Origin: Diplonema japonicum
Lineage: Eukaryota; Protista; Euglenozoa: Diplonemea
Assembly: GCA_964019335.1 (NCBI GenBank)
Contig: OZ025662.1
Location: forward strand, 682,001 to 746,000
DNA: 64,000 bases
Reading direction: 5' to 3'
A program made the position numbers and the translations under genes. Shown here piece by piece: positions 3,501 to 59,846 of this stretch. The first letter of the stretch is position 1. Each line of letters opens with the position of its first letter. The notes under the pieces are model-generated. The model ran no database searches, was not told the DNA's origin, and saw only the letters and a program-made list of their open reading frames with translations.

Positions 3501-3959
3501 GACGGTGGAGCTGGCACTGGATTTCGAGAACGTGACCGGGAAGACCCTTGGAGGGAAGCTGGGGGATCTCGCAGAAGTACAGCAGAAAGCGAGGAGATTG
3601 CATGGACTGATGAAGAAGATCTGGCACACATGGGAGCTAGGGAGGGTACTGAAGAAGGTGAAAGGAAGGAGGGCCTTCCCAGCTGAGCCGAGCACAAGGG
3701 TGCACACACTACGATCCATCGGGAGGACAAAGGCGGTGATCGGATGGAACAGGAGGGCGATATTTGCATCACCGAAGACCAAGCATGACCTAGAGGCGTT
3801 GAAAGGACAATGGGCGAGAGAACGAAGAGAAAGAGCGGCCAGGCTGGGGAGAAGGCCGGCAAGACCACCAAAGGAGGAGAAACCGCTGCTGAAAGGGGAT
3901 AGGTGCAGGTAGAAGATGAGAACAAGGGGGCGTCTCACAAAGACTTCCTTTAACTCATA

Positions 3960-7949: not shown

Positions 7950-8149
7950 NNNNNNNNNNNNNNNNNNNNNNNNNNNNNNNNNNNNNNNNNNNNNNNNNNN
8001 NNNNNNNNNNNNNNNNNNNNNNNNNNNNNNNNNNNNNNNNNNNNNNNNNNNNNNNNNNNNNNNNNNNNNNNNNNNNNNNNNNNNNNNNNNNNNNNNNNNN
8101 NNNNNNNNNNNNNNNNNNNNNNNNNNNNNNNNNNNNNNNNNNNNNNNNN
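7950..8149. other. Assembly gap (200 N)
   Basis: Run of N inside the repeat gene. Confidence 0.99.
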
Positions 8150-14491: not shown

Positions 14492-15235
14492 GAAAAAGAA
14501 ATTGGAAAAAAAATAAAAATTAAAAGGTAATAAAATGAAAATTTTCGGCAGGAAAAAACTATTTTCTCGACGGTTTTACAGTAAACGGTTTTTTTTTTCT
14601 TCTTTCTTTTTTTTTTTTAAATTGTTGCGTGTGAAAAGCATTTTGATGTGACTAAATAAAAGGTACGAGGAGGGGGGAGGGGGCGTAAGAAAAAAAAGAA
14701 ACACGGGGAAAGGGAAGGGAAACAAACAAACAAAAAAGAAAAGGAAACTGTATTATTCACAGTAAAGTACACACCCACTTTCTGCGATTTGCCTTTTTTT
14801 TCTTTGTCTGAACATAAGGAGAACGTTAGCTGTGAACGTGTTACGGGTTGATAAACTTCTCCAGGTTTCTACCCAGCACGTACAAACAACTATCGGTTCC
14901 TCTTTTCTTTCAGGTTGTTGTTGTTACTATTGAGTATTTCCCCTTTTCTTATTCTTCTTCTTTTTTACTCCCCCCCCTTCTCCTCCCCCCCCCCCCCCCT
15001 GTCCTTTTCTTTTTTTTTTCCTTCTTCTCCTCTCATTCAGTGCTCCCCCCAAAAAATAGTTGTTTGGTGGGGAATGATGTCCGGCCCTTTTCGTTTTTTT
15101 TTTTACTTTCTCTTTCTTTTTTTATTCTCCTTCTCCATTGCATTCCAAAAAAAGAAAAGCTTACATTTGGTGTGTTCCCCCTTTTTTAAATTCACAATCA
15201 CCTATCCATCAAAACAGGTTGAGGGATCGAACACA

Positions 15236-18200
15236 ATGCAAAGCAGTTTTGCTGGAAAGAAAGGACTGCCCAGCCCAGAAAACCCGCACTTAAAGCTGAC
15301 AGGAGGGGAGATCAACATCTCAAAGGATGACGTGGAGGAGGTGGTAACACTGCTGCAAGGAGTGAAGGAAGGGGGTGGGGGCGACAGGGCGGTAGTGGGG
15401 GCTGTGTTGAGTGCCGCTGCGAAGTTCACGGACCCGCCTACACTGCGGGCGGCTACTGTTAGCTGGCTTGAAAGAAAAAAGAACCCTATGACTGACGAGG
15501 ACAGAAAATTCAGCGATGGCATAGCTAATGCCAAGCCTGCAAACAACCCCAAAGAGGTTGTCCTCACACACTTCTATGACGCAGCCTACACCCCACCCTT
15601 CCCTGTTGAAGAGCTTCACCAGGATATCTCTACGTGGTGCACGCCTACAGGCGAGATCTGGAACAACACTGCCATCAACGACCTGCAGGCAAACTGTAAC
15701 CTCGTCCTCACCCACCACTCCAACAACCAACCCCCCCAGGTCGTCACTCCTCTCTGGCTCTACTCCGCTTCTCAGCTCGGCCGCCACAAGCTCTGGGCCA
15801 CATGGGTCACTCCCTCCGACAACATCGAGGGGGCGCGGTGGAAGGCTGTGCCAGGCAACTTGATCGAGAAATGCATGCAGCCGGACGGCGCACTCCTCCT
15901 CGACCCTTCGTGGATGAAAGCTTACAACTTCCCAGCAGGCTCCATCCCTGCCAGTGTTGCCATGGGCCTGGAGGCTGATCCTTACCCTAGTGAGCTGCGT
16001 GGCGAAGCGTCCGTTGTCGACTTCAGGTGGTCCCACACAGAAACGAAATGCAACATTGCAGCACACAAACATTTCTACCTAGTAAGGTACGAGTGTCTGT
16101 GCCTGGGCAACGGGCAGTGGTCCCCTCTGCACGATGTAGTCATGTGGCTACCAAGGCCTTCTGAAAACGGCCTTGCGATCAATATCGGGGAGCTGCCACC
16201 ATCGGGGGTCTTGGAATACCTGTACAGTAGGGGTGTCGAGGAGGAGATCCTGTGGCCCTTGCAACAGCACGGCTGGACAGCAAAGCTGTGCTACGGTACA
16301 GTCATGGCCATGTTCAGTGCGAAGTGTTTTGCGGAGCCCGACCAGCAGATGTACAACCCTGCCCTCCATGACAGGTTCAAGGACCTTTGCTCCGTGCTGT
16401 TGGGACAGAAAAAGAGCGAAGATGTGAAGCACACATTTGAGTGGTTACTCGACTCACGGGAGGGCAATGACATCAGCAGCATGATGCAGGAGATGGATGC
16501 CCTCTCTGGCATCATCCCTCAAAGCCTCCTCGACGTGAAGTTAAAAGGCAATGCTGACCCTCCGCCGGGTGTTCTGGCACACGCTACGGAAGTACAAGAG
16601 TTGGCATGGGGTGGAAAGAAGTTCCTTGTAGCCCTGTCCGGCGAGCATCCTTGTGTATGCGTCGGTGGCACCGCCTACGAGCTGTTCCGCGTAAACGACA
16701 CGTATGAAGACCAGATCTTCTGGCACATGAACTATGCCATGCGAAGCAAACAGTTCGGGACCGAGACATCGCTCAGTATTAAGGAAGGGCCTGCAGCCGG
16801 AAAGTATCTGCCTCCGCCACAGGAAGAGGTAGCTTCTGAGATCACCAAGTGGAACGATGACTGGGACGGTCAGGACGACGACGACTCTGTTGCAGCCGCA
16901 CGTGCAGCGCCTGTTACATACACCCGTGTCGCACTCCCGCCTTGCACTGCGCAGTGGGACGGCTACACATGGAGCTACTCCCTTGAAGGGTCAGTGCCTG
17001 TAACGCTGCAAAACTTCAATGTTTGGTTGTCACTCGGAACATGGCTGCTACCCCAAGCAATACCATTGATATATTACTTGGACAAAGCGCTGGCAGTACT
17101 TTCTGAGATAGATGGCTGCCGAGCACCAGCCAATCTTGTTGTGTACCGTGGGCTGAGGGGCGTGACCCTTCCGAGGACTGTCTACGACGACAACAAGGTA
17201 GTGCTGTGGTCTGCGTATTCATCCGCATCTTCGGATAGGGGTGTTGCCAGCAGTTTTGCTCGGGGCGAAGCGGCTGCGGCAGTGTTCGCTTTGACGGGTA
17301 AAACATGTGTGTGCATTTCGCACTGGTCCAGGTTCGGAAGGGAACGAGAGTGGCTTTACCCCCCGAACACGACATTTCAAGTGACCTCAACCCTCAGTGA
17401 GGAGCAGGCAAAGATACTAAAATTAGACAAGCTGCAGCTATTCACTATGAATGAGGTCAGTATTCTAGACACCCTCCTCGTCTACTTGAGATCCCTAGTC
17501 AATGTTGTGGCAGCGACTGTGGAGGGTTCTGTCATGCCACGGCACGTGGAACAGATTTTCGGTGTGATGAAGTACCTGACGACAGGAAAGCTCACAGAAG
17601 CTCTGGAAATATGTCTTGATCCAAAATTACCCGTTCTAAAGACGCAGCAAGGTGCAGAGATATGTGGCATGCTGGTACGCATGGGTGCCAACCGCAGTAC
17701 CTTCGCTTCTACCGCCTTGTCTCTAGACGACCCTGATCCTGTGACCTTCATGTACCTCGTGAGGGCTGGTGCCAGCTTTGAAGACGCCCAGCAATGGATG
17801 AGCCATTATGAGACTACAGCGAGGGAGCACGTGATGAACATCGGCATGCTCATCATAAGCGAGACGCTCGAGAGAGCCGACATTCGTGAGGAGTGCTCTC
17901 TTCAGTTCGAAAATACACAACACGAGTACGAAGCTGCCACGAACCTTGCCCTTGGGCACATCACAACGGTAAGCGTCACAAGGTTACACGGGGAGTATGC
18001 ACACATGAACGGGGTCTACACTCTGGATCTTCCGCGTGTTTTCATGTGCCCTGGGTTCCATGAATGCAAGGAGCTGGGCTGGACTCTTGATGCAACACGT
18101 CCGTGGGGCGTCTTTGTTGTGAAAGCCACATCGAGACCTGCATCAACATGGGGACTTACCTCAGGATCCCGCGTAATATCTATGTGCAAAGACGGCGTCG

Positions 18201-21091
18201 AGACCAAGCTGCAGGGTCTCAGTAGTGTCGATGGTATTATCGCTGAACTGAAGGGCGGCTCGCCATCCCCGGTGACGCTGCACATAGAAGAGAAACCGCA
18301 GTATTCTATGATGAACCCGACACGCTTCCTGTCATACTGCACCATCACCCTTGAGCTGAACGGGGAGTGGCGCATTAAAGACGCAGAGCTTAGGCAGAAA
18401 GAATCTGAGAAGCACCCAGATTGGGACACATGGATTCCTGTGGGCAGGTGGAAGGGGAAATATGACAAAACAAGCACTCCATATGAATGGCTGCTAGGGC
18501 AGTGGGCACAGAGGTCACAGCATCAATATCAGTGGTACATAACGGGGCCTGTGACTTCGGCGATCGCTTTGTGTGGCGGTGTGACGGAATACGGCTGGGT
18601 ACACGAGGGGTTGCTGCGGTACACCGTAGAAGAAGATGTAGAGACCATCAAGCCGATCAAAACACTGTACGACGACACACAATTGCTAGAACAGGCCAGA
18701 CACAGCCTCATAGAAATGGAAGAGGGGGACCTCGACACAAGAGAGACTCAAGTGGCTATTCCCAACCTCTTCAAATCCACCAAGGTGCTCCCTGATGGCG
18801 TTCACGCAATGCACCGTGTCAGCGAAGGGTGGGTCCTTGTCAACCACACCACCCTTCTGACGTACACCTTGGAGCGTGTGAGAGTAGAAGGCGTGTACCC
18901 CTATGTGACAGCATGCGACTCTGTAACCACGTGCAAAGACGGCAACACCGTCATGGCACCCAAAGAGGAATCCCTGAAGCGGCAAGGATTCTTCTCCTAC
19001 TCGTTTCAGCCGTACGATGACACCGTTCCCTTCGTACTCAAGGGCATGGGAAACACGAAGAAGTGGACCCCAAGGGATTGTGGCGGCGGCGCGTTCACGT
19101 ATTGCCGAAGCAAGAGTTTCATCGGAGAAAACCGTCCTAAGCTTCTTGAATCGGGAACAGCGAGAATTGTGGGGAGGTGCAAGGTACGCGGGATGGATGA
19201 GAACGATGCATCGGTAGAGGGGTGGAGTGTCGAGGACATGCCGGAGTCGATAGAACTGAGGGACGGAACGGTGGTGAAACCGTGCTGCAACATTGCAAGA
19301 TATGAATGGGACTGGTGGCACGTTGTCGATGTAGAACAGTACAGGAAGAAGGTCAAAGAACCGCGGTTTAGAAACCAAAGCACCGAGTGGTTCAATGCGC
19401 AACAGAAATCAGGGGAAGCTTTTGAAGCACTTCTTAGCAACCCCGACATCGCCCCAATGAAGAAGCACGTCGAGCAGTACGAGAAGAGGATGTTAGTGAG
19501 GAACATCTACACCGCGCAATACATGTGCGATGAGGCGGGGAACATCCCACCAGATCTGCCTGACATCAAATCCCTATGGGATCAGGACAACATGCATAAC
19601 TTGAAGACTGCATTAGAAGAATACGAGGAAGCTGTAAAGCTCGCTGTGAAGAAGCCAGTAAAGGTAGTTGATGAACTGAAGGAATCAAAGGTCGATGAGG
19701 GGGGTACTTTCAGGAGCATTGGGGGCGACACGGGCCTCATCAGTTTGCACATAGGCCAGGCAGGCGTACAGATAGGCGATGCACTGTGGGATCTCTATAG
19801 TCGTGAGCATGAGATTTGCAACACGGATGTAGCTGACCGTGTATCGTCCTTGCTGTTCCGGGAGTTGAGTGATGGGTCTTTTAGGCCAAGGGCGCTCTTC
19901 ATTGACACTGACCCGAGCACGGTGGACAATCTGAAAACTAAATGGTTATTCGACAGTTCTAATTACATTAAAGGAAAGCAATGTTCTAGTGACATTTACT
20001 CCCGTGGTTTTAACTGTGAAGGGAAAGAGATCTTCAACGCCACAGTTGCAGCGCTCAACAGGCAGTTGGAAGAGTGCGACAGAGTCACGGGGTTCCACAT
20101 TACGCATGCTGGCGGAGGCGGCACTGGCGGCGGGTTCCAAAACCTGCTTTCCGAGCTCCTGCAAGTAGAGTACGGCAGGGTGCCAGTTCATAACTTCACA
20201 GTGCTCTCAAATGAGTCGTCCTCCCCTACAGGGGTTTATAATACAATATTCACGTTGGAGAGCCTCCTGTCGCATCAACACAGGATGGTCACGATTTTCG
20301 ATAACGGGAGGCTGCAGAGTATGACTTGTTACATAACCCCCGTTACTCAGAAACCACAGGGTTGTGCGCTACTCGACTGGGTTTGAAGGATGCCACATAC
20401 CATCACATGAACCACATGGTGGCACAGGTATGCCTGGTTGTTTTTACATTCTCTCTAGTTCATGAGCTCCCTGACTTCTTCTATCCGCCTCACGCGAGTG
20501 GTGGGTGACATTAGGTGTGACATAGGCGACACGAACACTTCGCTGGTGCCATATCCAAATCTGAGGTTTACATGCCCTACATTTGTGCCGTGTTTGGGTG
20601 AAAAGGAGGACGAGAGGCCGAGGGTTGAGCAGCTGGTGGTCGAGGCTCACGATCCAAACTGCTGTATGGTGCCCCTGTCGGGCAAACGGAACCTATTCAG
20701 TAGCGCCTTGTACCTAAAAGGAAGAATGGCTCACTGCAACATCCTTATAGCCGCCAATGCTGTGCGCTACTGCGACAGGATGAACGAGATTCCCCCTTGG
20801 TCATCGCGGATAGCTATCTCGCAGGTGCCTCCCAAGTTCGTGCCTGGCTGCGGTATTGCTGCGGTCCCTCGTACCTGTGCGTACCTCCAGAACACCTCTG
20901 GCATCATCAATTATTTCGACAGGTATAGCCACCAGTTTGACCTCCTGTTCAGCAAACGAGCTTTCTGTCACTGGTATTCCAGTGAGGAAGGGAGCTTCTC
21001 CGAGGCGCGGATGAGCGTCGCAGGGCTTGTTAAGGATTATGAGATGTCATTCGACGAGCCTGAGCAAGAGTCCGATGAATGGGAGGGATAA
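15236..21091 (+). CDS. ADP-ribosyltransferase-tubulin fusion protein 1 (~1927 aa)
   Basis: Exons 15236-20318, 20360-20427 and 20459-21091. ART motifs YRG, YSSAS and FGREREWLYPP. Tubulin domain from about 19733: LHIGQAGVQIG, RPRALFIDTDP, GGGTGGG, FDN, LVPYP, KRAFCHWY..EGSFSEAR. Confidence 0.88.
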
Positions 21092-21232
21092 ACTCTGCTG
21101 CTTTTCCAAGCAGGTGTCCATAGTTGTCGGTGCCAACATCATGCTCGGCGCTGTTTTTTCACTCAGCGCTGTTTTTTCATGTATTTTCTTCGCTGTTCGT
21201 ACTTCATTGAGTGTAGCTAACAGGTTTTCGGG

Positions 21233-24200
21233 ATGAAACGGAAGCAGAGCATAACCGCAGGATGCACCAAGGAAGTAAGCGGCATTCTGAAAGGGTTGAA
21301 TGAAGTTGTTGACGATAGCCGTGTGGTGGTGGAGACGCTCCTGGGTGCTGTAGGTGAAGTGGTGGATGGTCATGTAATGCGCAAGAAGGTGGTGTCGTGG
21401 TTTGACGAAAAGGGTGTGGGTGAGGAGGAAGACAAGAAGTTCAGCGATGGGATCGCCAACGCGTCAGAGGCTACTCCCGAGATGCTCTCCACGGTGTCGT
21501 TTTACAATGGCTCCTACGTGCCCAGCATCTCAGGCATCGATCTGTGTGACTCAGTGGGCACCTGGTTCCTTCCTACGCGAGTCCTCTGGAAGCCCGAAAC
21601 GATCACAGACCTCAAAGGCAACTGCAAGATGATGCTAGACCATCACAACTACGGCATGCCCTCCCTCGTTGTCCCCTTTGTTCTGTACTCCGCTTCTCAG
21701 AAAGGCCAGCGGTACGTATGGTCTGTATGGATAGTCCCCCGTGACCCTGAGCAACCAGGAAAATGGAAGTCTGTGAAGTCCGCGGAGCTCGAGGAGGCAT
21801 TTAGCACATCTGGTGGTACCTTCGAACTTGACCCTGCTTGGTTCCCAAAGAAACTGGGTCTGCACTCGAAACACGTGCCCGATGACCCCATCACATTCAC
21901 AGAAGTTGAAGAAGCCTCCCATGCAGAAGGCTTTTCCCTCCATGCGCATTTTGCCTCGCGGTTTGTGCTCGTGCGGTACGCGCTCAAGCAAAGAGGCGCG
22001 CCTCTGTGGAGTCCTGTGCACGATACAATATCCTGGCTCCCGACACCCAACCTTGACACCAACACCTTCACCACGTCAATGAACACCATCCTCCCGCCAG
22101 GCGTTATAGAGTACCTCTACTCCCGTGAGCCTTCACAGCCGATTACTTGGCCTGGGTGGGAAGCTAGCTATGCCCTTGGTCTGCCTGCCGCTGCTCTCGT
22201 GAGTAAGTGCTTTGCAGAACCCAACCAACAGGACTACAATAAGTCGCTTCATGAAGAAGTGCTTGCTCTGGTCGACAGCATCGTGGATGACAACAAAGAG
22301 CAACGCGAGAACATCGGAAACATGCTGGCGTCCTGGGCGCTGAACAACAACGCTACCATCGACGTTCCACATGTGGACGAAGAGTTGGTACGCCCTATGC
22401 TTCGGCAGATTGTTGGGGCAAAGCTGGGGAGGGAGGAGAAACCTCCCCCAGCGATGCTTGCACACTGCCTTGAGGTGCAGAAGGTGCAATGGAACGGTAG
22501 TATTTACCTCGTGGCCTTGTCAGGGAGCAACCCGCTGGTCACATCCACGGACGGAAATGTCTCGGTGGTCTCCCGCATGGCAGACTTGTACGATGACCAG
22601 ATATTCTGGCAGCTGAACAGAGCTATGCGTATGAAACAGTTCGGTGTCGAGCCGCATCTCCAGGTCAGTGCCCCGGACATGAAAGGGAATTACTACTTAA
22701 AAGCAGATGTCCCCAACACTATCGAAGAGTGCGAGGGTTTGGCTTTCCAGCATGACGGCGGTGCAAGGTTAAGCCTGCAACAAGGTTCATGGACGGGGTG
22801 TACACACAATAAACTGCATAGTCGCTTCGTGTGGTTCGAGAGTGGCACATGGCTCCTCAAGCAAATGCTGCCTCTGCAGTATCACATAGACAAGGCTCTG
22901 AAGGAGGCAGGAACCCTCAAGGGATCCAAGGCACCACCTGGACTTACCACATATCGAGGCCTTAAAGATGTTGCGCTGGACAGGTCTATCTATGACACTG
23001 GAAAGGTTGTGCTGTGGGGTGCATACTCGAGTACATCTGGTGACAGGGGTATTGCTGCTGCCTTTGCGCAGACAGACGGTAAAGCTGCAGTGTTCAGTCT
23101 CACAGGAAAGAACTGTGTGTGCATCTCGAAATGGTCTAGATTCGGAAGGGAGCGGGAATGGCTGTACCCCCCGAACTCGGCATTCCAGGTAACATCTTCC
23201 CTGTCAGAGGAGCACGCAGAGCTCGCAGGGAAAAAGGACTTGCAGATCTTTTCGATGAACGAAGTAGACGAGGTGGACGCACTAATCGTATATCTGAGAG
23301 GGCTTGTGAACAAGGTTGTGACACAGGCAAACAACGCGGCGGACGAAGCTAAGAAGATGCCAAGACACGTCGAACAGCTGTTCAAGGTGATGCTGGGCCT
23401 TGTCAAGTACAAGAACACCAAAGAAGACATTGACCTCAACACAGCATTGGCTGCTGTTTGCGAGTATGTCGTCACTTTAGCACACAGCACCCCACAGCCC
23501 TGAGGAACAGGTCTTGTACACAGCAGAGGGTTCTGGTTTATCAAGAAAGCTACTCGCTATGGGTGCTAGCAGGTTCGCCTTGTCAAACATTGCAAGACGC
23601 AAGGTGGGCCCTGTCCCGAACGTGCTGGGGAGGCTCGTCGATGCGGGTGCTCCCTTCGAAGGTGCGAACGGTGCTGTCGGCTGGATGGGCGAGTTCGAGT
23701 CACAAAGCAGGTCGCTGTTCGAGACGGGCGTCAAGCTCCAGAAGCAGCAGCTCGTAAAGTACCTTCACCTCCGTCTGGAAGAGGAACGTGAGTGTAGGAT
23801 CCTCCAGGACAACAACGACAGTCTGCTGCAGGTCACGCAACACGCAGAAGCGCTGTGCGTCTCAGGGTTGTACGGTGATAGGAATTACTACAACGGATAC
23901 TATGTAAGAAACCGCAGCAAGGGGAGAGTGTTCACACAGGTCAGTCCGATCAGGCTCTTGTCGTACTGCGAGATACACTACGACACCAAGAGACAGGGCA
24001 TTGGGGAGTGGCTTCTCACCGACAGCACGACACGGGCACTGCTGTCACGCAACAAAGAAGTTAATTGGTTGTCGGGAAGCTTCAAGCTTGAAGGGCAGTG
24101 GGGTTTGGCCGGTGGGGCCAAGCAAGAGGGAAAAGGGTTCCCATTCGTCACTGTTCTCACAACGAATCCACAGGAGGTGATTTGTGCGAGGCCCGACAGC

Positions 24201-26421
24201 TACGACGAGGAGAAGGAGGAGGTATGTTACCACACGCAGTTCATGCATACAGATGCTGCGGCTGGCTAAAGAGCCGCCCTTACCAAGAGACAGGTACTCA
24301 GATGAAGATGAAGATGAATTTGAAGGGGATGACGGCGACAGCTGGTTTTGGGAAGAGGCTGCCCAGAATGTCGAGAAGCGTCCCCTTAAGCCCGTCACCA
24401 CTGCAGTGGACCAAAACATGCTAAAGGCACCTTCCATGTTTCGCAACTCAAACAGATGCGAGCTGAAAGCCTCCGACTGGGGGGGTACAGGATTCGGCTT
24501 CGAGCATTCTTGGCGGAACGAAAACACTCGCCCACTAGTCGTACGGGCAGGGTTCCTCAGAGCTGTTCATGGGTCAGGATTCAAGTGTGGTGTCTTCAAG
24601 TCGAAGAAAACGTCTAGTAATTGTGTAATAAGCAAAAAAACTTCCAAACCGCTGAGGCACGAGCTTAAACCATGGGAAAGGGAACGCGCCAGCGTACTGA
24701 AAGCTTACGACGCGCTGATGGCAGCAGCGGAAGAAAGTGCAACGCCAGAGGTTGTGCAGATTAAATACCAGTTAGCCGAGAAGAAAAGCATAGCATACAG
24801 GCTGTTTGGTCTTACTGAGAATGTGCACCCTTCGCCTGTGCGTGAACTTTGGCAGAAGGACGATACGGGTGCTGCAATGCAGGAAAAGATTGTTGAAATC
24901 CTCGAGGCTGCTGACCCCGACAGTTTGAGTTTTGAGCAGAGGTTGCTGATGTTTCCAGAGACCATTGAGGCTCTGAAGCGCAAGACGCTGCTGCAGATGA
25001 AGCCGCCGCTGTCTCCTAAGGAAAAGACTGAACTGCCGCCGCTGCCCGACGTGACCCCGTTGGGCGGCAGCAGGGGTATCATCAACATTCACATCGGGCA
25101 AGCTGGGTGTCAAATAGGCAGTGCCTGTTGGGAGCTGTTTTGCCTTGACCACGAGATAGGGATCGACGGCTACCCAGACCCAGAGGCACACGGCGGCGAT
25201 CATGACCCGAGGTACCTTTTCGATGAAAGGAAGAACGGCAAATGGCGGCCAAGGGCGGTGTTTGTGGACATGGACCCGACCGTAGTCGGCAACTCGCAAG
25301 AAGTAAGCCGCATCAACAATGTGGTGCTGAAGGAGAACAACGTCATCGGGAAACAAGAGTGCGGTGACAATTATGCCGATGGCTACTACAGCAACAAACC
25401 GATGCAGGCTGTGGCCATCGATCGGATGAGGAAGCTTTTTGAGGCGTGTGATGTGTCGCTTGGAGTGCAGATCACGCACTCCCTTGGAGGTGGGTGCGGA
25501 AGCGGCTTTGGGAGTGCCATTTTGCACGACCTGAAGGAGTACACCAGAAGGCCCATCCACTGCTACACCGTGATGCCATCACCGAAGGTGTCAAATGGCG
25601 TGACGGAGCTGTACAATTGGGTCTTGGCTGTGCCCGACATCAACGAGGTGGCATCCATGTGTGCCATGTATGACAACGAGTCTTTGTACTTCGCGACGCT
25701 CATGAACATGGGGATGAAGGATCCGAAGTTCACAGACATGAACAGGATAATAGCGCAGTCCCTGTCGTCGGTGACAGCAACCATCCGTCTGAGCTCACGA
25801 ATGTCATTACGCAGCATGGAGCACGTGGGGACGAACCTGTGTCCGTTCCCGAGGACTAATTTCATGACAACTGCCTTCGCACCATTGTTTTCGGCGACGA
25901 AGTGTGCGTTCCCAAAGTCGAGCTTCAAGGCGCTGGCAACTATGGCTTCTGCGGTGCTTCATCCTAGCGGGTCGTTAGTTTCAGTTGATCAGCGGAAGGG
26001 GAAGGCCATTGCAACCTCTTTGAACTTCCGCGGCGATGTGGAACCGAGCGATGCCCTCGCCGTGCTGACCGCCTACAGACAGAACCGCGACATCGTCCGA
26101 GTGGACTACACACCATGCGATATCAAGAGCACCATCTGCAGCAAGCTGCCCATCGTTGCCAAGGGCTCCGCCATGCAGAAGACTACACGCAACATCTCCC
26201 TGCTCATGAACACCACAGCAACAGGAGGCATGATGCAGACATCCTTCAAGCGTGCGAACCAGCTGTTCTGCAAACGTGCCTTTGTCCATTGGTACTGCCG
26301 TGTTGGAATGGAAGAAGGCGAGTTCAGCGAAAAGTTTGAAGGTGTGGCTGCCCTTATTAGGTCTTATGAAGAATTAGGCAAGGAACCAGAATATGAAGAA
26401 GAGGAAGAGGACTACTACTGA
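21233..26421 (+). CDS. ADP-ribosyltransferase-tubulin fusion protein 2 (~1707 aa)
   Basis: Exons 21233-23463, 23498-24221 and 24253-26421. Splicing of intron 1 restores the CDP..VL motif shared with the paralogues. ART motifs YRG, YSSTS and FGREREW. Tubulin from about 25072: IHIGQAGCQIGSACWELFCLDH, GGGCGSG, KRAFVHWY..GMEEGEFSE, tail EEEEEDYY. Confidence 0.88.
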
Positions 26422-26582
26422 CAAAACTACATCAACTGTATCATATGTGGTCGTGTTCCCTTTTACGAGGGGATGTTACTGCTTTTACATCTAATCTATT
26501 ACTTGTGAAATCTTTTTTTTTCTCTTGTTTGTGAAATCTATTATCCTTCGTTGTAGATATTTTTTTCAGTACGGTTGGGAAG

Positions 26583-29500
26583 ATGACAGGCTCCAGGTTC
26601 GCTGCTTCGAAAGAGCTTCCTGTTAAAACGCCTTCAGATGCCATAGCGCAGTTGCTTGATAAGATGAGTGCTTCTGTTGGAGGCGACATGGAGACGGTGA
26701 TTGAAGTGTGTTTAGATGCTTCGTGGCGTGTTGTAGATAGAACGGACACAATCCCACATGCCGCTGTGAAGTGGTTCAAAACAATGAATGAAGACATCGC
26801 TGCTGAGGTGAGCGCCAAGTTCAGCGACGGTATTGCCAATGCGAAGGGTATTGATGCACCAGAACAGATCACGAAACTTGACTTCTACGACCCGCACTAC
26901 GAAGTCCCTGTGGGCATGGACGAGATATACTCATACCTCCAATCCTGGAAAACACCCCTTGGCGCTTCCATATGGGAGTCCACCGCCGTTGGCGACCTTC
27001 AGGCCACAGGGAGCGTCATTGCCGAACATCACCACAGCGAGCAGCCTGAGGATATCGTCCTACCTCTGTACATCTACAGCGCGTCGCAGATCGGGAGCAG
27101 AGTGATCTGGTGCGCCAACATGGATGACAGGAATTGGGAGCTTCTCGACGGGGAGCGCTTTGAGGAGGCCTTCAAGTCAGGCGACACATTTGAGCTGAAG
27201 CGTTCGATGTTCCCCGATCTCTCTGGAAACCTCATCAGGTCAGACTGCGCAATGGTCAAGGTGCCGTCACACCCCAGCGACGACGTGCAGGCATTCCAAA
27301 CGCTCACTTCGTCAGACGAGCATGTCACCATAGTGCGCTACGAGCACTCCAAAAGGGGTGATTCGCTACTGGGGCCATACAGCGACACGGTGAGCTGGCT
27401 ACCGTTTCCTAGCATTGAACATCAGTTCCAAGTGCCCCTTACTAGCATGCCGTCATCGGGTATTTTGGAATATCTCTACTCCAGAGGCGCAGAGGAAACT
27501 GTCTCCTGGCATCCCGAGTGGTCATCCAGATTTGCCCTTGGCCAGGCCATTGAGATGCTGATCAAGGTCTTGTTTGCAGTGACAGACCAGCAGACATTCG
27601 ACTTGAAAATGTACAGGCACTTCACCATACTTATAGAGAGCTTGCTGGGCACGCCGGAGGAACGCAGGAAGAGGGAAGACGACATGAAACAAGTGCTAGT
27701 GGAGATGGTGTCGGAGGGGGCGAGCGACAGCAGCAGCCTGGGCCACGCCGCGTCGGTATCGGCGATACGGCTGTTCATAGGCTCCGGGCAGTTCATCTCC
27801 GAGCTAGCATTCCCACCAGCTGTGGTGAAGAAGCTTATCAACGCAAAGCTAGGCAGCAACCCTGAGCCGTCTCCAGCACTTCTAGCACATTCGCTTGAAA
27901 TCCAAGAGCTGCGGTGGTGTGGCAAGAAATACCTCTTGTCCTTGTCGGGAGAACGTAAGTATCTCATCACCGAAAACGGCGAGCTGGCAGAGGTCTTCCG
28001 CACTAACAACCCGTTCCCCGACCAGGTATTCTGGCTCTTGAATGCTGCAATGCGACACAAGCAATTCCAGACGCCCACAAAGCTGGAAGTTTACTCGGCC
28101 CGCCATCGAGGCGACTACGTGTACTGTCCTAACACAAAGGAATGGACAATGAACGGTGTCGCGGCAGTGCACAAGGAAGGGGAGTGGAGTGTTAATGGGG
28201 ACATTCTCGAGAAGAATCAGTACTGGCTTCAGATGGGGTCTTTTATGGTGCCGCAGGTGACACCCCTGATTTATTGGCTGGACAGAGCCCTGCGTGCTAT
28301 AGACGAGAAATGCGAGAAGCCCCAGACGTACCGCGGTCTGAAGAACGTGACACTGCCAAAGGAAGTATATGACAAGGACAAGGTTGTGTTGTGGTCTGCT
28401 TACTCGTCCTCCACTTCTGACAGGGGCGTAGCGAGCTCTTTTGCTAAGGACGACGGCCAAGCTGCGATTTTCGCGCTGCACGGAAACACTTGCGTCTGCA
28501 TCTCACCGTGGTCGAGGTTCAGCAGGGAGAGGGAGCTGCTCTTCCCCCCGAACTCGACCTTCCTCATCAGCGCCTCCCTCGATGAGACGCAGCAAGAGAT
28601 CTTGGGCGTTGCTAACCTGCAGCTCTTCAGCATGAAGGAGGTCGACCGTTACGGTGCAATGGTTGTCTACCTGCGCAAGGTGGTGAATCACGTAATCAGC
28701 ACTGTGCAAGCAGCAATGGTGCCGGTGCACGTCAGGCAGCTATTCAAGATCATGAGATGCTTTGAAAAACATGATCTAGATGGTGCTTTGGAACACACGT
28801 GTGACCCAGATGAGCCTGTGCTCGGCACTCCTGAGGGCGTGGCACTGGCACGCATGCTCATAGACATCGGTGCCGACCCTGGGGTACGCACAAAGGTGGC
28901 GATGAGGTCGCAGGATGCTTCGGTGGAATCGTTGTCGCAGCTGGTGATGGCGGGGGGCTCTTGGGCGGATGCCTTTGAATGGGTGTTGATGTACGAGAAG
29001 CAGAACAGGGAGGCCATCGACAGCCTGTGTACTTTTCTTGGTGACTCTATTTTGAAGCATGAAGGATTGCTGGTATCTGAGCAGTCTGAGTTTGAGATGC
29101 TTTTAAGCGGTGTCTGGGACAGAGTCGCAACCTCTGATTCAGAGCACTTCGTGCCTCAGGTCACTGTGACGGGTCTCAAAGGGAAGGCTTCTTATCTCAA
29201 TGGGCTGTATGCGAGACTCGATGCGAATAGTGCCGCAAAGATGGGGCTGCACCCTGAGAAAACTTTCGCGAAGGTCGCCACAAGAGTAAACTCTTGGGCA
29301 CACATATCGTACAACGAGCACCACGATTGCTGGTTTTTGGATGATGCCTACATGAAAGAATGCAGGCAGACTCGAGGCGAAGCAAGCGAGGCTGTGGCAT
29401 TCATGTGGCCGCCGCCATTTCGTGCGAGGCCTGTGAATATGTGTTTGCTGGGAAAGTGGATGGATGGGTTTTGTGTGATCTTTTCTAAGCCTGCGGTGCC

Positions 29501-32500
29501 GAAGGACAAGCAGGTGGCGTGGACGGATCAGGACCTGGCCTCGTTCGAGGGGTTGGATGAAGATGTGGACAGCGGGACTGTCGAGCGGTTCAAAGCAAAT
29601 GGGCCGCAGCAGTGTAGTGAAGATTCACGTGTAAAGCTGAACAGGCACAGCGCAAAGCCTTGGTGGAATGGCGGGACAAACTTCAAAATCCAGACAACAA
29701 TCCATGAGCAGGACCTGGTGGAGCTCCGTTTGGGGAACAGCGTGCGTCGTTTGGTAAGCCATTCATACGGACGCGGCTTTGCGATGGGCATAGCACATGA
29801 TAAACGAAAGACATACGCACGCACCCCTGGCAGAGTTGAGCAGTCCGTTAACCTGAGCCGCGGGGAGCTGCCTTTCAACAAGCACTTGGCCGAAGGCTGG
29901 GAAGCTTTCCAACTGCTGCTAACCGATGAGAAGCACCGCGAGATTACAGAAAAGATCAAAAAGCGCGTATCGCTACTGGAGGGCAGAGTCCCACCAAATG
30001 ATTGTTGCAGCAACATAAAAACTTCGTTTTCGACGCCGGCTAAATACGAGCGAAGGGCGAGGCTGAGGACCGACGAAACGACGTGTCCCTCAGCCCTTGA
30101 GATCGTGGACGGGATAGGGTGCGGGTTGTACAAGATGAAGTCTGAACTGTGCTATGAAACAGAGGCAGGGTTCAAGTTTTTCAAGAAAGACGAAGAAAGC
30201 AAATGGCTGCTGAAGGTACCCGAGAGTGTTGTAGACTATCAGATGTTGCTGAATGCCACAGTCGAGGCTGTCAACGATAACGAGCTCAAGACGTACCTGG
30301 AGGAGACAGAGGCACAGAAGACTGAGGCTATTAAAGCACTTCGGTCGTGGGATGGCGACCTGTGTTGCAGTTTTTCCAGCCAACGCACCGGCTTGCTGAG
30401 CCGCAACATCGTAGAGCTCCTTGACATCTGCAGGTTGGACAACAAGGAGGATACCGACGCTGAGGACTACTCAGATGTGGTGCGAATGTTCCAAGACGAC
30501 GCAGAGGCTACCATCAAGAGTATGTGCTGTGCATGAAAGAAAAAGAGAAAATAAAAGAGTTGCTGCCGCTGTCCAGAGTAATCGAAGCAAAGGCGCACAT
30601 CCTGAAGCACCAAAAGCAGAACATGCCAGGCATAGACGACAAGTCTCTGGACTGGATTGAAGCACTGCGGGTTGTCATGAACATCGCAAGGACCACGAGC
30701 GACAAGAACGGCGAGGCTGCCGAGGTATTATGTTTGTGCTTTACCTATCACACATCAGCATGAACATGTGCGCGAATGTGACATCATTCCTGCAGATGGC
30801 ATTCTTGTAAGGAGCACGAGGCAAGTGGGTGCTGCAAACCCCACGTGCGCCATTGTCGAAGGGTGGACAGGGAGTGATTGGGCTTCCGTTGCGCCACCTG
30901 TCTCTAAGGTATCTTTATCTTTATCTATGATGCTTCCAGGTGCCGAACCTCCTGAGGGTCACAGGCGAGGCTGCCGTGGAGGGGAGCTACACAAGCTTTT
31001 ACGGCGAAGCCTGGGTGGACCACGCCACTGGCAATGTAATGGATTTGCGTCACGACTACTACGTGTTCTGCGACAAGCACGGCAGCGAGCTTCTCAGGAG
31101 CAACGTGCAAAAGTACGGCAGAGCAGCCGAGGACATCAAGTCATGGGCGGTGAAGAAAGGTGAGGAATGGGAAGAGGTGATGCACGTGGCAGTCGAGAAG
31201 CCTGTACGTGTCGTGAGCATGCATGGGACACTAGCTGCACGCGGCGGGGACATCATAACCATAGGCGTAGGGCAGGCAGGTGTGCAGATCTGCGAGTCGC
31301 TCTTGTCACTTTACAGCATCGAGCCATCAGGCGTGTCTGCGTACCACAACTGCTTGTTCAACGTGACAGAAAGCGCTGCCCTGTCACGGGCTCTGCTGAT
31401 CGACACCGATGACATGGTCCTCAACACGCTGAAAAGAAAGAGGTACAACTTCTTGTCAGACGAGAACTTCTATTCATTGAACTCACGGGACAGCGTGACG
31501 TGGGAACGAGGCAGAGGCCTGTACCGTGAAGAGGTCCTAGAGGCCGTACAGAAACACCTGGAAGCTGCTGACCGAATAGCGGCTATTCATTTTGTCCACG
31601 CAGTAAGCGGTGGCACAGGTCCTGCTTTGACAGAGAGAATCATTCAAGAGATGGGGTGCAAAAAGATAACAAAGAAGGCTTTCCCCATTTTCCCCTCACC
31701 CGTCAACGCTTCTTTAGACACACAAGTTGCACCGTACCATGCGTGTCTTTACTACGCAGGGATGTCTACCTTGTGCGACCTAATCGTCCCCTTTGACAAC
31801 GAAAGCATGCGCAGGGTCCTTATCAGCAGGACAGATGCAAGGAGGCCACTGTTCGGTGATTATAACGAGATTGTGGCGAATGTAGTGTCGGCGTGCTCCG
31901 ACAGCATGCGGCACGACGGGCCTATCTCGGTCAACCCCACAGGCATCACGCAGGGTTTGGTGCCGTACCCGCAGCTGCGTTACGCGTGGGCGGGACTTGC
32001 TCCAATGGTAGAGCATCGCGCGAACAAGCTATCGCTGAACTCGCTGGCGTTGAGTGCCTTGTCCGCACCTCTCACGGGAGCCGACTACATGAAGTCTACG
32101 ATGTCAGTGGGGCTATTCATGCGTGGCCCGAATATCGAGGCAAGCAAGGCGCACATCACGAGCTACAACCTGAATTATGTTAGAAAAGGCAGGCAGTACC
32201 TCCCTGTAGCAGACTGGTCCCCCTGCAGCAGGTTCCTTTCTGTGTGTCACGCGCAGCCGCCGAAGCCACTGCACAGCTTTACTTTGCGCGACAGAACCGT
32301 GACGACGCTGACGTCGGGACTCGGTATCACAGTGCCAATGCAACAGATCAAAAGGTCGTTCAATCTTCTGATGAACCAAAGAAGTTACCTGCACTGGATG
32401 ATCAAAGACGGGATGGAGGAGGATACACTCAAACAGGCGGGTGACAGTACTACAAGCCTCATCAAAGAGTACAAAAACGCATGCGCAGAGCCAGATTACT

Positions 32501-32505
32501 TCTGA
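26583..32505 (+). CDS. ADP-ribosyltransferase-tubulin fusion protein 3 (~1939 aa)
   Basis: Proposed exons 26583-30519, 30558-30724, 30759-30908 and 30940-32505; the first acceptor is an AAG and is less certain. ART motifs YRG, YSSST and FSRERELLFPP. Tubulin from about 31243: IGVGQAGVQI, RALLIDTD, SGGTG, FDNES, LVPYP, RSYLHWMIKDGMEE. Confidence 0.78.
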
Positions 32506-32578: not shown

Positions 32579-35500
32579 ATGATCCTTGATGTTCTGGTAG
32601 CAATTTCATTGATCTCCGTCGCAGTCGCGCAGTACACCTTCGTTGCTGACCAGTGGTGCCTCACACACGATGATTGCAGGGAGTATGGCAGATTTCCTGA
32701 TTTGGGAGCGACATGCGAGCAGGGTAGGTGCTACTGTACTGACAGATATGAGTACATAGGAGAAGGCCTCTATCACTGCGCGCACAAAAACAGTACCGGG
32801 AACACGTATTCTTACATGTACAGCTGGGTGTTCCCCAACGGTGACTGCACAGCTGTGGACGCCAATGTGAGAGCGCACGTTGCCAACGTGTTCAGCATGG
32901 TATTCGGAGTGGGGCACAAGGTGTCGTTGGAATTTTATGTGTGCGCCAACGATACGACACCTGTGTTCCACACGCGTGGCACCTTTGATGCTACAGACCC
33001 CATGGGTTCCATCTCCCTCAGCGACATGGTGACGATCGCACTACGCCTCATCAGCAACAACTCCTACCTCTCGGACTTGACAACCGCACTTCAGTTCTCC
33101 TCTGCAAGCGATGTCATTGCATCCCGTGCAATAGTAGGTGCCTTGTGCACTGTTCCAAACACAGTCAAGACGGTTGAAATCTCGGGCACCTGTCACTCCA
33201 TCAAGTGCTCAAACGACTACGGCCTCTCTATTGTGAACAACCAGCAGGTCTGCGTCGGTAACGATGACTCTCTTGCAGCAACAGACATTGTTGGCATCTT
33301 GTTTGCTGGGCTCATCGGTTGTGTGATCTGCTGTGTGCTGTGCTGCTTGTGCTACACGGGGTACACGAAGAAGGACAAGGTCGTCTACTACGAAGATAAG
33401 CTTGAGAACACACCTCTGTCACGGGAGCCCATCTACGACCCCTACAACCCAAGGTCCACCACACCCATCGATGGCCCCCTAGGGTCAGCATCTCCAGGGT
33501 CGACAGTGCCCCACGGACAGGTGGCAAGACAGCATGCCATGGCTCACGGTGTCTTAGGAGCACCATACAAGTCAGGGGACCGCGCCATGCCGGGCTTTGA
33601 AAGGCCAGGCCCTGACGGAAGGTTCTTAGATGGCACATTCGCTGCTCTGGGTCCTGATGGTAGGTTTCCGGATGGCACGTATGGGTGGCCTAAGCCCGAT
33701 GGGAGGTTTCACAATGGTATCTACGCTCAGCCCAGTCCAGACGGCAGGTACCCTGATGGTTCGTTTGCAAAGCCCGGCCCCGATGGCAGATGGCCTGATG
33801 CATGCTTAGGTCCTGACGGGAGGTACCCAGATGGTTCTCAACCCGGCCCTGATGGCGTGTATCCTGACGGTACAGTCGCAAGACGTGGTCCTGATGGCAG
33901 GTATTATGACCCACGGCCATATGCTGATGGTAGAATCCCTGATGGCACCTTTCTGAAGCCAGGCCCCGATGGAAGGTACCCAGACAGCATGCTGCCGGGT
34001 CCCGGGGGAAGGTACCCTGATGGCACCATAGCCATGCGTGGCCCCGATGGCAGATATTACGACCCACGCCCGTACGGTGGCCAGCATGCTGGTCTCAATC
34101 GCACTCTGCCAGAGCTGGGCCCTGGTGGAAGATACCCCGACGGTGCTCAGCCGGGTCCAAATGGTCGGTACCCTGATGGGACGCTAGCAATGATGGGGCC
34201 AAACGGTAGGTATTACGACCCCAGACCATATGCTGATGGCACCTACCCTGATGGAACAGTGATGCCTGGGCCTGACGGGAGATACCCAGATGGCAGCTAT
34301 GCGCAGCCTGGTCCTGACGGCAGGTATCCTGATGGTACATATGCAAAGCCAGGTCCCAATGGTCGGTACCCTGATGGTTCATACGCGATAGGCCCCGATG
34401 GTCGGTACCCTGATGGCGCCCAGCCTGGTCCTGATGGAAGGTACCCCGACGGCACAATGGGCAGGCTTGGTGCTAATGGAAGGTACTTTGACCCCAGACC
34501 ATATGCTGATGGCACCTACCCTGATGGCACGATAATGCCTGGGCCTGACGGGAGATACCCAGATGGCAGCTATGCGCAACCCGGTCCCGACGGTAGGTAT
34601 CCTGATGGAACAATTGCGCTGGTGGGTGTTGACGGAAGATATCCTGATGGGACGTATGAAAAGAAATCAGGTGTCCCTTCTGGGAGTCGTGGTGTCCCTT
34701 CTGGAAGTCGTGGTGTGCCAGGCAACGACGGTGGACACCCCAGTGGTACTCGTGTTCCTGGCGGCTTTGGTTATGCAGCAGCAGTGTTAGGCCCTGATGG
34801 TAGGTACCCCGAAGGCACTGAGCCTGGTCCGGATGGCAGGTATCCGGACGGCACAGTTGCGCAGCGTGGCCCTGACGGCAAGTACTTTGACCCCCGTCCT
34901 GCTGGTGGCAGCAGAGGCCTTGGAAGCAGGCAAGGCCCCGACGGGATGGCTGCTACGAGCGGTTCACGCAACGTGCCAGGCTCACCTGAGATGTCGACGT
35001 CAGCGAAGACAAATACTTTAATGGGGGCTGGTGTAGGGGTGTTGGCGGGTGGTGCTATGGGTGGTGCGTTGATGAGTAATAAGAAAAGTGATAAAGAAAA
35101 AGACAAGCCAGAGGGGCTCATATATCCAGACGGCGACGGGCCACTAATCAAGTCGCGGGACGAGATGAGGAGCAGTACGGGCATGGCTCCAAACACCACC
35201 CCCACCAGGGAGAGGAAGTCACCCATGTCCAACCCTTCTAACACCTTCCCAGGCAGCCAGCGCCCATCGGCCAGGTCAATCGAGCCGTTGGACTCGAACG
35301 ATGACTTGCCGCGCTTTGGCAGCGATCCCTCTCCTCCATACCCAGTAGGCTCTAGTGGTAATAATGACCAGGGTGTGGATTTCGCAGCTATGCTTGCAGG
35401 GGCAGGAGTGGGCATGGCTGCGGGAGGTATTGTAGGGGCGGCTGCTGCTGGGGCAGCTGAAAAAGGGAGCTCACGAAGAGGCTCGGATGCAGACAGAAAA

Positions 35501-36856
35501 GGTGCGGAAGAAGGGACAACCGATCCAAGGGGAGCCAAGCAGTCCGAACAAGGTTCTGCTAGACACGTCACGGAGGGGGCGAAGAGCGCGGCACTGCCTG
35601 GACAGACAGCAGGTCTCGCAGCTCAGCAGGCGTCCGCAGGACATAGCGCTGCAAACAGCCCCGCGAAGGGCAGTGAACAGGGAGACCAAGGTCGCCTGAC
35701 AGAGGCGCACCGGGCTACGTCCGCATCTTCCGGACTGCCGTCTCTCTCCACGGAACAGAAAGTGGCTGGCGCCACAATTCTCGGAGCGTTGGCCATGAGC
35801 AAGGCTAGGAAGGAGTTCAAGAAAGATGTAAAAAACTACAGAGATTCTGAGAAAGATCGAAGGTATTAATATAATTCAAAGGTTGCATTCATCCAACCAC
35901 AGGGACTGGCTGGCAAAAGGGAAGTCTGGGTCCATCGGGATGAACATGGACAGGGACATGAGGGTATGTTTTAAGGTGGAAATACTCTACTACCGACAGG
36001 TACTTGCGCTTGTGAGCAATGGAGCAGGGGTGCAGGCAGGGGTGGAGGTAGGTGACTTGATTCTGCAGATCGAGAGCATCCAGAAGGGCGGGGGGTGGGT
36101 AAAGATCCCGGTGCCCAATAGGGGGAGGTTCTTGGAGTCGGTGGGGCCTCAGAGCGAATTGTTCGCAGGGCGGGACGTGAAGATCACGCTGATCAGAGAC
36201 CAACGTGAGCAGAGCAAGTGGAAGGCAATGAACCACCGTGCGCCGAGAAAGGGGTTCCAGCCAGACACCATCGTGTGGAACAACGCGATTGATGGCGCGA
36301 AGCACATGGTGGTGGAGGCAAAGCTGCAGGACGAAAGCGACAGGGTGATGGTGACACGGGAGAAGAGGATGCAACACATCAAGGAACAGAAAGGACTGAA
36401 ACAGATGGACATAGGACTCATCACTGACATTTTGTATGGAAAAGCAAGTAAAAAAAAAGAAATGTTTACAACTAAACAGGAACAATCCTCCAGCGGCCAG
36501 GGAGTACATACGTAGGGTCTTCACCAAGGCTGATGACTCCCACAAGGGTAAAATAGGACTCACTGGGCTGGTGTCTGTGTGCACTGATGTGGCAATTGCT
36601 ACTGGCTGCCCACCCCCTGGTAAGGAGGATTCCCAACGTCTGTTTGACTCTATAGACACCAAGCACGACGGGTATGTGGAAAATAGTAACAAAGAAAAAG
36701 TATTTTTGTTTTTCTTTTCACAGAGCTGTTTCGTTTGACTTGTTCTTCCCTTACTTCCGACTTTACCAGATCAAGACTATAGCCAGGCACCATGAAACGA
36801 TAGAGTATGTGAAGGGGGGGGGAAAAGAAAAAAGAGGGGTAAACAAATACAGGTAA
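32579..36856 (+). CDS. Type I membrane protein: signal peptide, Cys-rich ectodomain, TM, cytoplasmic GPDGRYPDG repeats, PDZ-like domain and EF-hand pair
   Basis: Introns 35863-35902, 35964-35999, 36434-36479 and 36672-36723 join ORFs 32579, 35883, 36436 and 36674 in frame. PDZ-like GSIGM..VLALVSNGAGVQAGVEVGDLILQI; EF loops DDSHKGKIG and DTKHDGAVSFD. Confidence 0.7.
33605..34895 (+). repeat. Coding tandem repeat (P)GPDGRY(P/Y)DG, several dozen units
   Basis: Visible in the translation. Larger block duplications also occur, e.g. YYDPRPYADGTYPDGT(V/I)MPGPDGRYPDGSYAQPGPDGRYPDG twice. Confidence 0.9.
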
Positions 36857-42579: not shown

Positions 42580-43563
42580 ATGGAGAGCGTGGTGCCCGCA
42601 GTGCTGGCAGGCGTGGCGGAGGCAGTCACAGTGCAACCGCTGGACATGGTGAAGACGCGGATGCAGCTCAGCACTGTGAGGATAAGCATGCGGCAGGCTG
42701 GGTTGGAGGTGTGGCACAGGGGTTTCGGGGGCTTCTACCGAGGGGGCGGGGTCGAGATGGGGAGCATAGTGGTTGCAAGGGGGACGTGCTTCCTAGTGTA
42801 CGATGCTCTGGAGCTGCTTGGGGCACGCAATGAAGTGGTGAAGGGGGCAGTGGCTGGGGGCGTGGAGGCTGTGGTTGTGACGCCATTGCAGGTGGTGAAG
42901 GTGAGGATGCAGAGCAAGGCATTTTTGACTAAGTACCAAAATCCCTACCAATGTACTATGCTGACTCTGAAAGAGGAAGGCCCACGTGCTTTCGCATCAG
43001 GCTTGCAGGCAACCATCCTACGGAATTGCGTGTGGACTGCTGGCTACTTCTCGCTGATGGCGCAGCTCACTTTCCTTCCAATTTCCGTCTCAGGCTTCGT
43101 GGCAGGTGCTGCCTCTGCTGCCTTGAACGCACCCTTTGACGTCATCAAATCCGTCCAGCAGGAGGCTGTGCACAAGCAGTCTGTCTTCAAGACTGCTGCC
43201 GCCATCCTCGCACACGGGGGGCCCCTAGGCCTGTACAAGGGTGTGCTACCCAAGATCCTCCGCATGGGGGTTGGGGGGTCGGTGAGTATAACAATGTTGA
43301 AGTACGCTAAAACCTTTTTTGAAGTTTGCTTTTTTTCGCGACACGAACAAACTATATCAAATGCACAAAAACAGAACCTAAAGAAAAAAGAAAAAGATCT
43401 TAACAAACACAATGATGCAGCCCATGCAGTTCGTGATGCCCCAGCAAATGATGCAGCAGCAGATGTTGCCCCAACAGATGATGCAGCAGCAGATGATGCC
43501 TCAACAAATGGTGCAGCAGCAGATGATGATGGTTGCAACCCCGGTATGTTGCACAAGCCGTAG
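42580..43563 (+). CDS. Mitochondrial carrier protein (SLC25; resembles oxodicarboxylate carriers); the true stop is probably near 43330-43400
   Basis: Three carrier signatures: PLDMVKTRMQ, PLQVVKVRMQ and PFDVIKSVQQ. The ORF tail beyond about 43325 overlaps the next gene and is doubtful. Confidence 0.85.
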   Translation: MESVVPAVLAGVAEAVTVQPLDMVKTRMQLSTVRISMRQAGLEVWHRGFGGFYRGGGVEMGSIVVARGTCFLVYDALELLGARNEVVKGAVAGGVEAVVVTPLQVVKVRMQSKAFLTKYQNPYQCTMLTLKEEGPRAFASGLQATILRNCVWTAGYFSLMAQLTFLPISVSGFVAGAASAALNAPFDVIKSVQQEAVHKQSVFKTAAAILAHGGPLGLYKGVLPKILRMGVGGSVSITMLKYAKTFFEVCFFSRHEQTISNAQKQNLKKKEKDLNKHNDAAHAVRDAPANDAAADVAPTDDAAADDASTNGAAADDDGCNPGMLHKP

Positions 43564-59800: not shown

Positions 59801-59846
59801 GTTATTAAATTTTCTTGTTTTGCTCAATATATTCACAACAGAGAAA

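Follow-up and report, generated by a model that had tools for sequence, protein, structure and literature searches.

We analysed a 64,000-nucleotide stretch of the Diplonema japonicum genome (assembly GCA_964019335.1, contig OZ025662.1, positions 682,001 to 746,000 of the forward strand), referred to below as the window and numbered from its first letter. Three tandem genes in the window were found to have a common layout, in which an ADP-ribosyltransferase (ART) of the R-S-E class, with an E-x-E motif, is followed by a variable middle region and then by a C-terminal alpha-tubulin domain (Table 1). The fusion of ART and tubulin domains in these genes is confirmed as real. Pfam detects an ART above its cut-off, together with the tubulin GTPase domain, in 3/3 genes, and the motifs quoted in an earlier note on this sequence, which had described three adjacent paralogues of one architecture with an intact catalytic triad, are all present. 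The window is of eukaryotic type; its genes are co-oriented, its introns are short and of the GT-AG kind, and a pyrimidine tract plus AG precedes all three start codons.

Gene 1 carries both domains within a single open reading frame (ORF; 15236-20386, or 14855-20386 from stop to stop). The Pfam ART match covers residues 610-732 (50.1 bits, cut-off 22.3) and the Tubulin match residues 1502-1695 (131 bits), with no stop codon between them; a Tubulin_C match in the last exon reaches 21 bits, under its cut-off of 26.6. The earlier note had placed the ART and the N-terminal half of the tubulin in one ORF, and this stands, although the likely start is the ATG at 15236 rather than position 14915, since residue 2 of the homologue P0087 aligns with residue 1 of gene 1. 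For gene 2 the ART is matched in ORF 21221-23503 and Tubulin plus Tubulin_C in ORF 24181-26421, while for gene 3 the ART lies in ORF 26535-30536 and Tubulin in ORF 30931-32505. Stop-free models with introns of 31-41 nucleotides were built for genes 1 and 2. The gene 3 model, also free of stops, has three introns, and all five acceptors tested for the first of them leave the frame open.

Table 1. Window coordinates of the three fusion genes and of their parts (aa, amino acids).
Feature	Position	Strand	Details
Gene 1	15236..21091	+	~1927 aa; exons 15236-20318, 20360-20427, 20459-21091
Gene 1 split ART domain	15563..17461	+	~aa 110-742; helical lobe segments, insertions ~aa 181-490 and 510-600 (borders inferred from motifs and secondary structure), then catalytic core
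Gene 1 catalytic motifs	17144..17350	+	YRG 17144; S-x-S; ARTT loop S-R-F-G-R-E-R-E, RERE 17339-17350
Gene 1 middle	17462..19732	+	helical bundle, ankyrin-like helices, long helix, small conserved NG-x-Y segment, variable region
Gene 1 alpha-tubulin-derived domain	19733..21091	+	two introns; 32% identical to a canonical alpha-tubulin
Gene 2	21233..26421	+	~1707 aa; exons 21233-23463, 23498-24221, 24253-26421
Gene 2 catalytic motifs	YRG 22952; RERE 23147-23158	+	
Gene 2 alpha-tubulin-derived domain	25075..26421	+	38% identical to canonical; acidic tail ending EEEEEDYY
Gene 3	26583..32505	+	~1914-1945 aa; exons 26583-30519, second exon ending 30724, 30759-30908, 30940-32505
Gene 3 catalytic motifs	YRG 28329; RERE 28524-28535	+	
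Gene 3 alpha-tubulin-derived domain	31249..32505	+	25% identical to canonical

In each of the public runs X2, X3 and X5 a single contig covers 14986-33000, with no differences and no gaps; X3 and X5 come from one sample, and the three runs may include the assembly's own source. These contigs, together with the fused homologues described below, rule out an assembly artefact, and a merger of neighbouring gene models is ruled out by the presence of ART and tubulin within single ORFs and on one transcript. That transcript, 5388 nucleotides long and from Sulcionema specki, encodes P0001, a protein of 1774 residues with ART, Tubulin and Tubulin_C domains, so that both domains are seen on one mRNA in a relative. 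Because P0001 is a single transcript and gene 1 a single ORF, expression of the two parts as separate, trans-spliced mRNAs is unlikely. In a contig of run X1 (another organism; its RNA status is guessed) the gene 1 intron 20319-20359 (GT..AG) is skipped, and a skip at ~30725-30758 of gene 3 is found in the same run. Pieces from X1 overlie the tubulin parts of all three genes, and among the X1 contigs over these genes no piece joins an ART to a tubulin part. Comparison of the tubulin parts with this related strain showed that 19 of 28 changed codons are silent, as against 27% expected (omega ~0.18), which indicates purifying selection on the tubulin domain. The gene comparison classed 37 coding differences from 40 of 53 rows, and some of them may be errors, as the X1 contigs are shallow. 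Open frames and the excess of silent changes rule out a pseudogene.

The catalytic motifs of the ART are intact in 3/3 genes: YRG provides the Arg of strand 1, SSAS, SSTS or SSST the S-x-S/T of strand 2, and RERE the catalytic Glu of strand 5. The ADP-ribosylating turn-turn (ARTT) loop, S-R-F-G/S-R-E-R-E, fits the pattern X-X-aromatic-X-X-E/Q-X-E. All four residues (R, S, E and E) are kept in all 7 of the fused proteins whose ART domain was scored, as well as in 123/144 domains of the wider family. A confident AlphaFold2 (AF2) model was obtained for residues 1-830 of gene 1 from a 45-row alignment (pLDDT 86, pTM 0.82) and displays an ART fold with both a helical lobe and a beta core. Foldseek searches with this model retrieve R-S-E ARTs, with 133-170 aligned columns for single-domain ART chains. 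VIA-align matches 177-204 residues in HopU1 (Z 13.4, root-mean-square deviation (rmsd) 3.6, 198 aligned), rat ART2.2 (Z 12.3, rmsd 3.5, 204 aligned), Tre1 (Z 11.9, rmsd 3.1, 177 aligned) and XopAI. The matched ranges of the model run from 97-122 to 741-744, and the gene 1 ART therefore starts near residue 110 and is discontinuous. The ~500-residue N-terminal domain that the earlier note called unknown is in part the helical lobe of the ART, which large insertions divide. We infer that the lobe is formed by helices at 144-177, 494-506 and 605-622 with the insertions in between, the alignment output giving first and last residues only. No known fold stood out for the insertions in whole-model structural matching, which is no evidence of novelty. 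The first of them has no Pfam match to WWE and an hhalign probability of 0.5% against a two-sequence WWE profile, and a search of the ESM Atlas with residues 1-470 of P0001 gave no usable match.

The ART resembles the mono-ARTs HopU1, XopAI, rat ART2.2, Tre1, ExoS/T and Vis (PF01129) in its fold (Z 10-13.4) and in its R, S-x-S and aromatic-x-x-E-x-E motifs. It differs from them in its ~400 residues of insertions, in the alpha-tubulin fusion and in having no secretion signal or membrane anchor. A hydropathy scan found no hydrophobic signal or membrane segment in 7/7 fused proteins (maximum 19-residue Kyte-Doolittle score 1.14-1.64; at most 1.34 within the first 60 residues), so that the signal peptide, glycosylphosphatidylinositol anchor or membrane anchor of a vertebrate ecto-ARTC or a secreted ART toxin was not seen. 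Judged from their sequences, the ~200 kDa fused proteins look cytosolic and the enzyme looks active. Arginine specificity is predicted from the fit to the E-x-E form of the ARTT pattern; in iota toxin, the Glu at the sixth position of X-X-aromatic-X-X-E-X-E binds the target arginine (PMC7827354).

The C-terminal domains belong to the alpha lineage of tubulins, all 60 of the listed PDB matches for each of the three genes being alpha-tubulins; the tubulin tree was built without a non-alpha outgroup. Like alpha-tubulin, they retain the GQAG, GGxG, DN and KRAF-x-HW-GxEEGE motifs, and an acidic tail is kept in gene 1, gene 2 and P0088. Unlike it, they are joined to ~1250-1500 N-terminal residues, their lateral loops are shortened or changed, and E254 is lost. 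The tubulin that the earlier note called complete has its full length but is highly diverged, with 25-38% identity to a canonical alpha-tubulin in the three genes. Five canonical alphas share 70-97% identity among themselves, as against 23-38% between them and the fused domains. Between orthologues, the fused tubulin domains are 37-40% identical and the ART modules 43-52%.

Conservation of individual surfaces was scored over seven fused domains, P0087 being excluded because its call reads into an intron, against a background of 31% mean identity to canonical alpha-tubulin. Nucleotide-site positions are 54% identical and residues 399-423, the H11'-H12 hairpin, 61% identical, with 0/10000 random sets as high in either case, whereas lateral positions fall below background at 20% (P 0.013). 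G10, Q11, D69, G143, G144, G146, N206 and N228 of the nucleotide signature are kept in 7/7 domains and T145 in 5/7, and E71 is replaced by D in 6/7. R402 is likewise kept in 7/7, N101 in 1/7 and T179 in 0/7. E254, which we take to be the GTPase-activating residue, is kept in 0/7, with Asp in gene 1, His in gene 2 and Gly in gene 3. By these measures the tubulin domain looks folded and constrained, and ill suited to the lattice.

P0001 was the sole match to the three-domain architecture among 7993 candidates. It is also the one protein with an ART among 86 long tubulin-containing proteins, the other 85 being mostly of the kind expected from merged neighbours. Residues 1-920 of gene 1, compared with 1.84 billion cluster representatives, gave 227 matches. 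A tubulin domain is present in 4 of the best 150 of these: P0087, P0088 and P0089, in which ART and tubulin lie inside one called ORF each, and P0164, a tubulin-bearing, N-terminally partial protein. Trees of the ART module and of the tubulin, rooted at their midpoints, agree on the orthologue pairs gene 1/P0087, gene 2/P0001 and gene 3/P0089, and both place P0088 and P0164 together in a fourth lineage. The fused proteins and P0091, a truncated Rhynchopus transcript in which no tubulin is seen, fall on one side of a branch with support of 1.0 (86 rows); the Shimodaira-Hasegawa-like approximate likelihood ratio test (SH-aLRT) gives 100 for the same branch (40 rows, these 9 and the first 31 of 77 others). 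The simplest reading of the trees would be a single fusion followed by duplications into at least four paralogues. The calls of P0241 and P0087 seem to read into the introns placed as the first of gene 2 and of gene 1, respectively, and intron positions therefore look conserved between species.

The three genes are members of an ART-ankyrin family that is far larger and includes further add-on domains. Among rows of at least 800 residues, 83/101 have all three N-terminal blocks together with the ART core. Pfam add-on domains in the relatives comprise ankyrin, WWE, cNMP-binding, F5/8C, 5'-nucleotidase and kinase (scans of part of the match list, in overlapping sets of 26, 19, 45 and 23 proteins), and on this basis extra modules appear to be a habit of the family. 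Ankyrins are matched by Pfam in relatives at the place equivalent to the gene 1 middle, and in none of genes 1-3. Two split-ART modules are present per protein in P0090, P0097, P0098 and P0103-P0106, often with ankyrins and a cNMP-binding domain. Where a name could be assigned (20 looked up), the module-bearing proteins all come from diplonemid genera (14/14, one name read from the prefix Hpha); Namystynia and Artemidia are presumably diplonemids. Of the ART-only matches, 5 of 10 are named and all 5 are euglenid. Three of the named genera are given as diplonemids in one published account (PMC7052976), and Diplonema in another (PMC10161547). A metagenome scan returned 230 pattern matches with 0 confirmed, and a search for further homologues among proteins of 3150-5000 residues found none, a size range too narrow to be informative.

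Few eukaryotic proteins are under as much constraint as alpha-tubulin, which is known as a free-standing subunit of the microtubule lattice. Capture of a host-protein or cytoskeletal-subunit domain by a larger protein has parallels in the integrated domains of plant nucleotide-binding leucine-rich repeat (NLR) receptors and in Dictyostelium filactin, although neither an NLR nor a filamin domain occurs in genes 1-3. Ankyrins and an ART are also combined in tankyrase, but that enzyme is of the H-Y-E class. A functional parallel is Serratia Tre1, the top Foldseek match by a small margin, an E-x-E ART linked to the tubulin superfamily; it differs in being a secreted antibacterial effector that acts on a separate protein, FtsZ (Arg174), from a chain of its own without a tubulin domain (PMC7827354). 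The FtsZ-like 1 family also includes long proteins, one with 1051 residues, that have a domain of the tubulin superfamily and are encoded near kinase genes, but it is prokaryotic, distant from alpha-tubulin and without an ART (the main text of PMC2875224 has 0 occurrences of 'ribosyl'). ART and alpha-tubulin domains are each known, and it is their combination that we did not find described. As the earlier note had supposed, no ART-tubulin fusion appears in the titles and abstract openings of the literature covered, from which subscription journals mostly fall outside, as do supplements, which may list such genes. ADP-ribosylation is not mentioned in the main texts of two diplonemid genome and transcriptome papers (keyword look-up), and a keyword search of a tubulin family survey shows no domain fusion (PMC4202323).

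We tentatively favour a reading in which these proteins are cytosolic arginine mono-ARTs and the captured tubulin is a docking module for tubulin-binding proteins, and we give this reading somewhat less than an even chance. The ART, with its intact R-S-E/E-x-E site, would turn over NAD+ and modify arginines in the cytosol. The diverged alpha-tubulin domain would be folded and nucleotide-bound, would stay outside the normal microtubule lattice, and would bring the enzyme to partners of tubulin such as motors, microtubule-associated proteins (MAPs), chaperones or free beta-tubulin. We favour it over a bait or switch, lattice entry or capping, a neutral structural role and an exported toxin. Several observations weigh against it. 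The nucleotide, lateral and longitudinal position sets and the residue roles were taken from what we understand of the tubulin structure literature and were not computed, and the alignment behind the surface counts contains indels. The beta-tubulin-binding (plus) face is not above background (35% vs 31%, P 0.18), the loss at the opposite (minus) face is not significant (26% vs 31%, P 0.17) and other outer-surface positions, at 29%, are at background. The tubulins of the three paralogues are only 22-30% identical to each other, a poor fit to one shared partner. Conservation of the hairpin may reflect folding alone, since R402 and E415, described as stabilising a hairpin that serves MAP and dynein binding (PMC9975266), form an internal salt bridge. 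The E-x-E motif does not fix the target either, because in SdeA, which has this motif, the sixth residue binds a non-target arginine (PMC7827354).

It is possible, if not probable, that diplonemids captured the tubulin as a sensor within a family of NAD+-consuming enzymes, one that would read nucleotide state, proteins that bind tubulin or agents that target it, and switch on arginine ADP-ribosylation; if true, the proteins would be either a protist defence receptor baited with tubulin or a new tubulin-code writer. A reading also raised in the earlier note, which we consider unlikely, has the tubulin as an integrated bait or switch that holds its own ART off until released by a tubulin-targeting agent (a virus, a bacterium or an algal toxin) or by a nucleotide change. 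This recalls the plant NLR integrated domains and is consistent with a large, lineage-restricted family with varied add-on domains, with paralogues in tandem, with tubulin surfaces that diverge faster than the enzyme and with selective retention of the nucleotide pocket. However, every paralogue has an orthologue in other assemblies, unlike fast-turnover immune arrays, the strain comparison gave no sign of positive selection, and a decoy is expected to stay close to its true target, whereas the fused tubulins have drifted far from canonical sequences.

Retention of a full-length domain, the nucleotide site, the KRAF-x-HW motif and the acidic tail could also be explained if the proteins paired with beta-tubulin and entered or capped microtubules at low stoichiometry, modifying nearby tubulin or MAPs as a built-in writer of tubulin marks. 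Tre1, among the top fold matches, does modify Arg174 of the tubulin homologue FtsZ (PMC7827354). We consider this distinctly doubtful, given the depleted lateral positions and the loss of E254 and T179 in all seven domains and of N101 in six; the Tre1 match is silent on the target because it is one of many near-tied ART matches. The proposal in the earlier note that the enzyme is delivered to microtubules through its tubulin moiety is weakened: with lateral and GTPase-activating surfaces degraded, ordinary lattice incorporation is doubtful. A purely structural or oligomerising appendage, on an ART whose function is unconnected with the cytoskeleton, seems improbable. The conserved residues are mostly glycines, core and pocket positions, and most family members have no tubulin (only the four among the best 150 matches do), but four lineages of paralogues retain the domain, it is under purifying selection, and three of the proteins keep an acidic tail. 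Export as a toxin against prey or competitors, also raised earlier, is very improbable: the nearest solved folds are mainly bacterial effectors, but these dominate the solved R-S-E structures, and the proteins are large, without the signal peptide or membrane segment sought by hydropathy, and have named ART-only relatives that are all euglenid.

In these genes alpha-tubulin is a conserved part of an enzyme and has been retained in no fewer than four lineages of paralogues. They offer a natural experiment on which tubulin surfaces persist once the constraint of polymerisation is relaxed, and they suggest a connection, open to test, of arginine ADP-ribosylation with the microtubules of a eukaryote. 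They also bring to light a large family of ARTs whose catalytic domain is split, in a marine lineage that is abundant.

Other features of the window were also noted. A short element at 14835-14890, present once in the window, is common to many contigs, with a summed depth of hundreds to thousands as against 17-229 for single-copy DNA; it has a folding z of -2.2 and no Rfam match at the gathering score, and is likely a dispersed repeat. A 200 N assembly gap at 7950-8149 lies outside the three-gene region. Downstream of gene 3, at 32579-35869, is a protein predicted to lie in a membrane; it has a hydrophobic segment rich in cysteine and many repeats resembling GPDGRYPDG, and it matches no Pfam family. 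A weak Cache/PDC sensor-domain match, below cut-off, falls at 59778-60710. The ORF at 1282-3912 encodes a reverse transcriptase and is likely a retroelement, and that at 43530-44432 contains two domains of the SpoVS family, whose known members are mainly bacterial.

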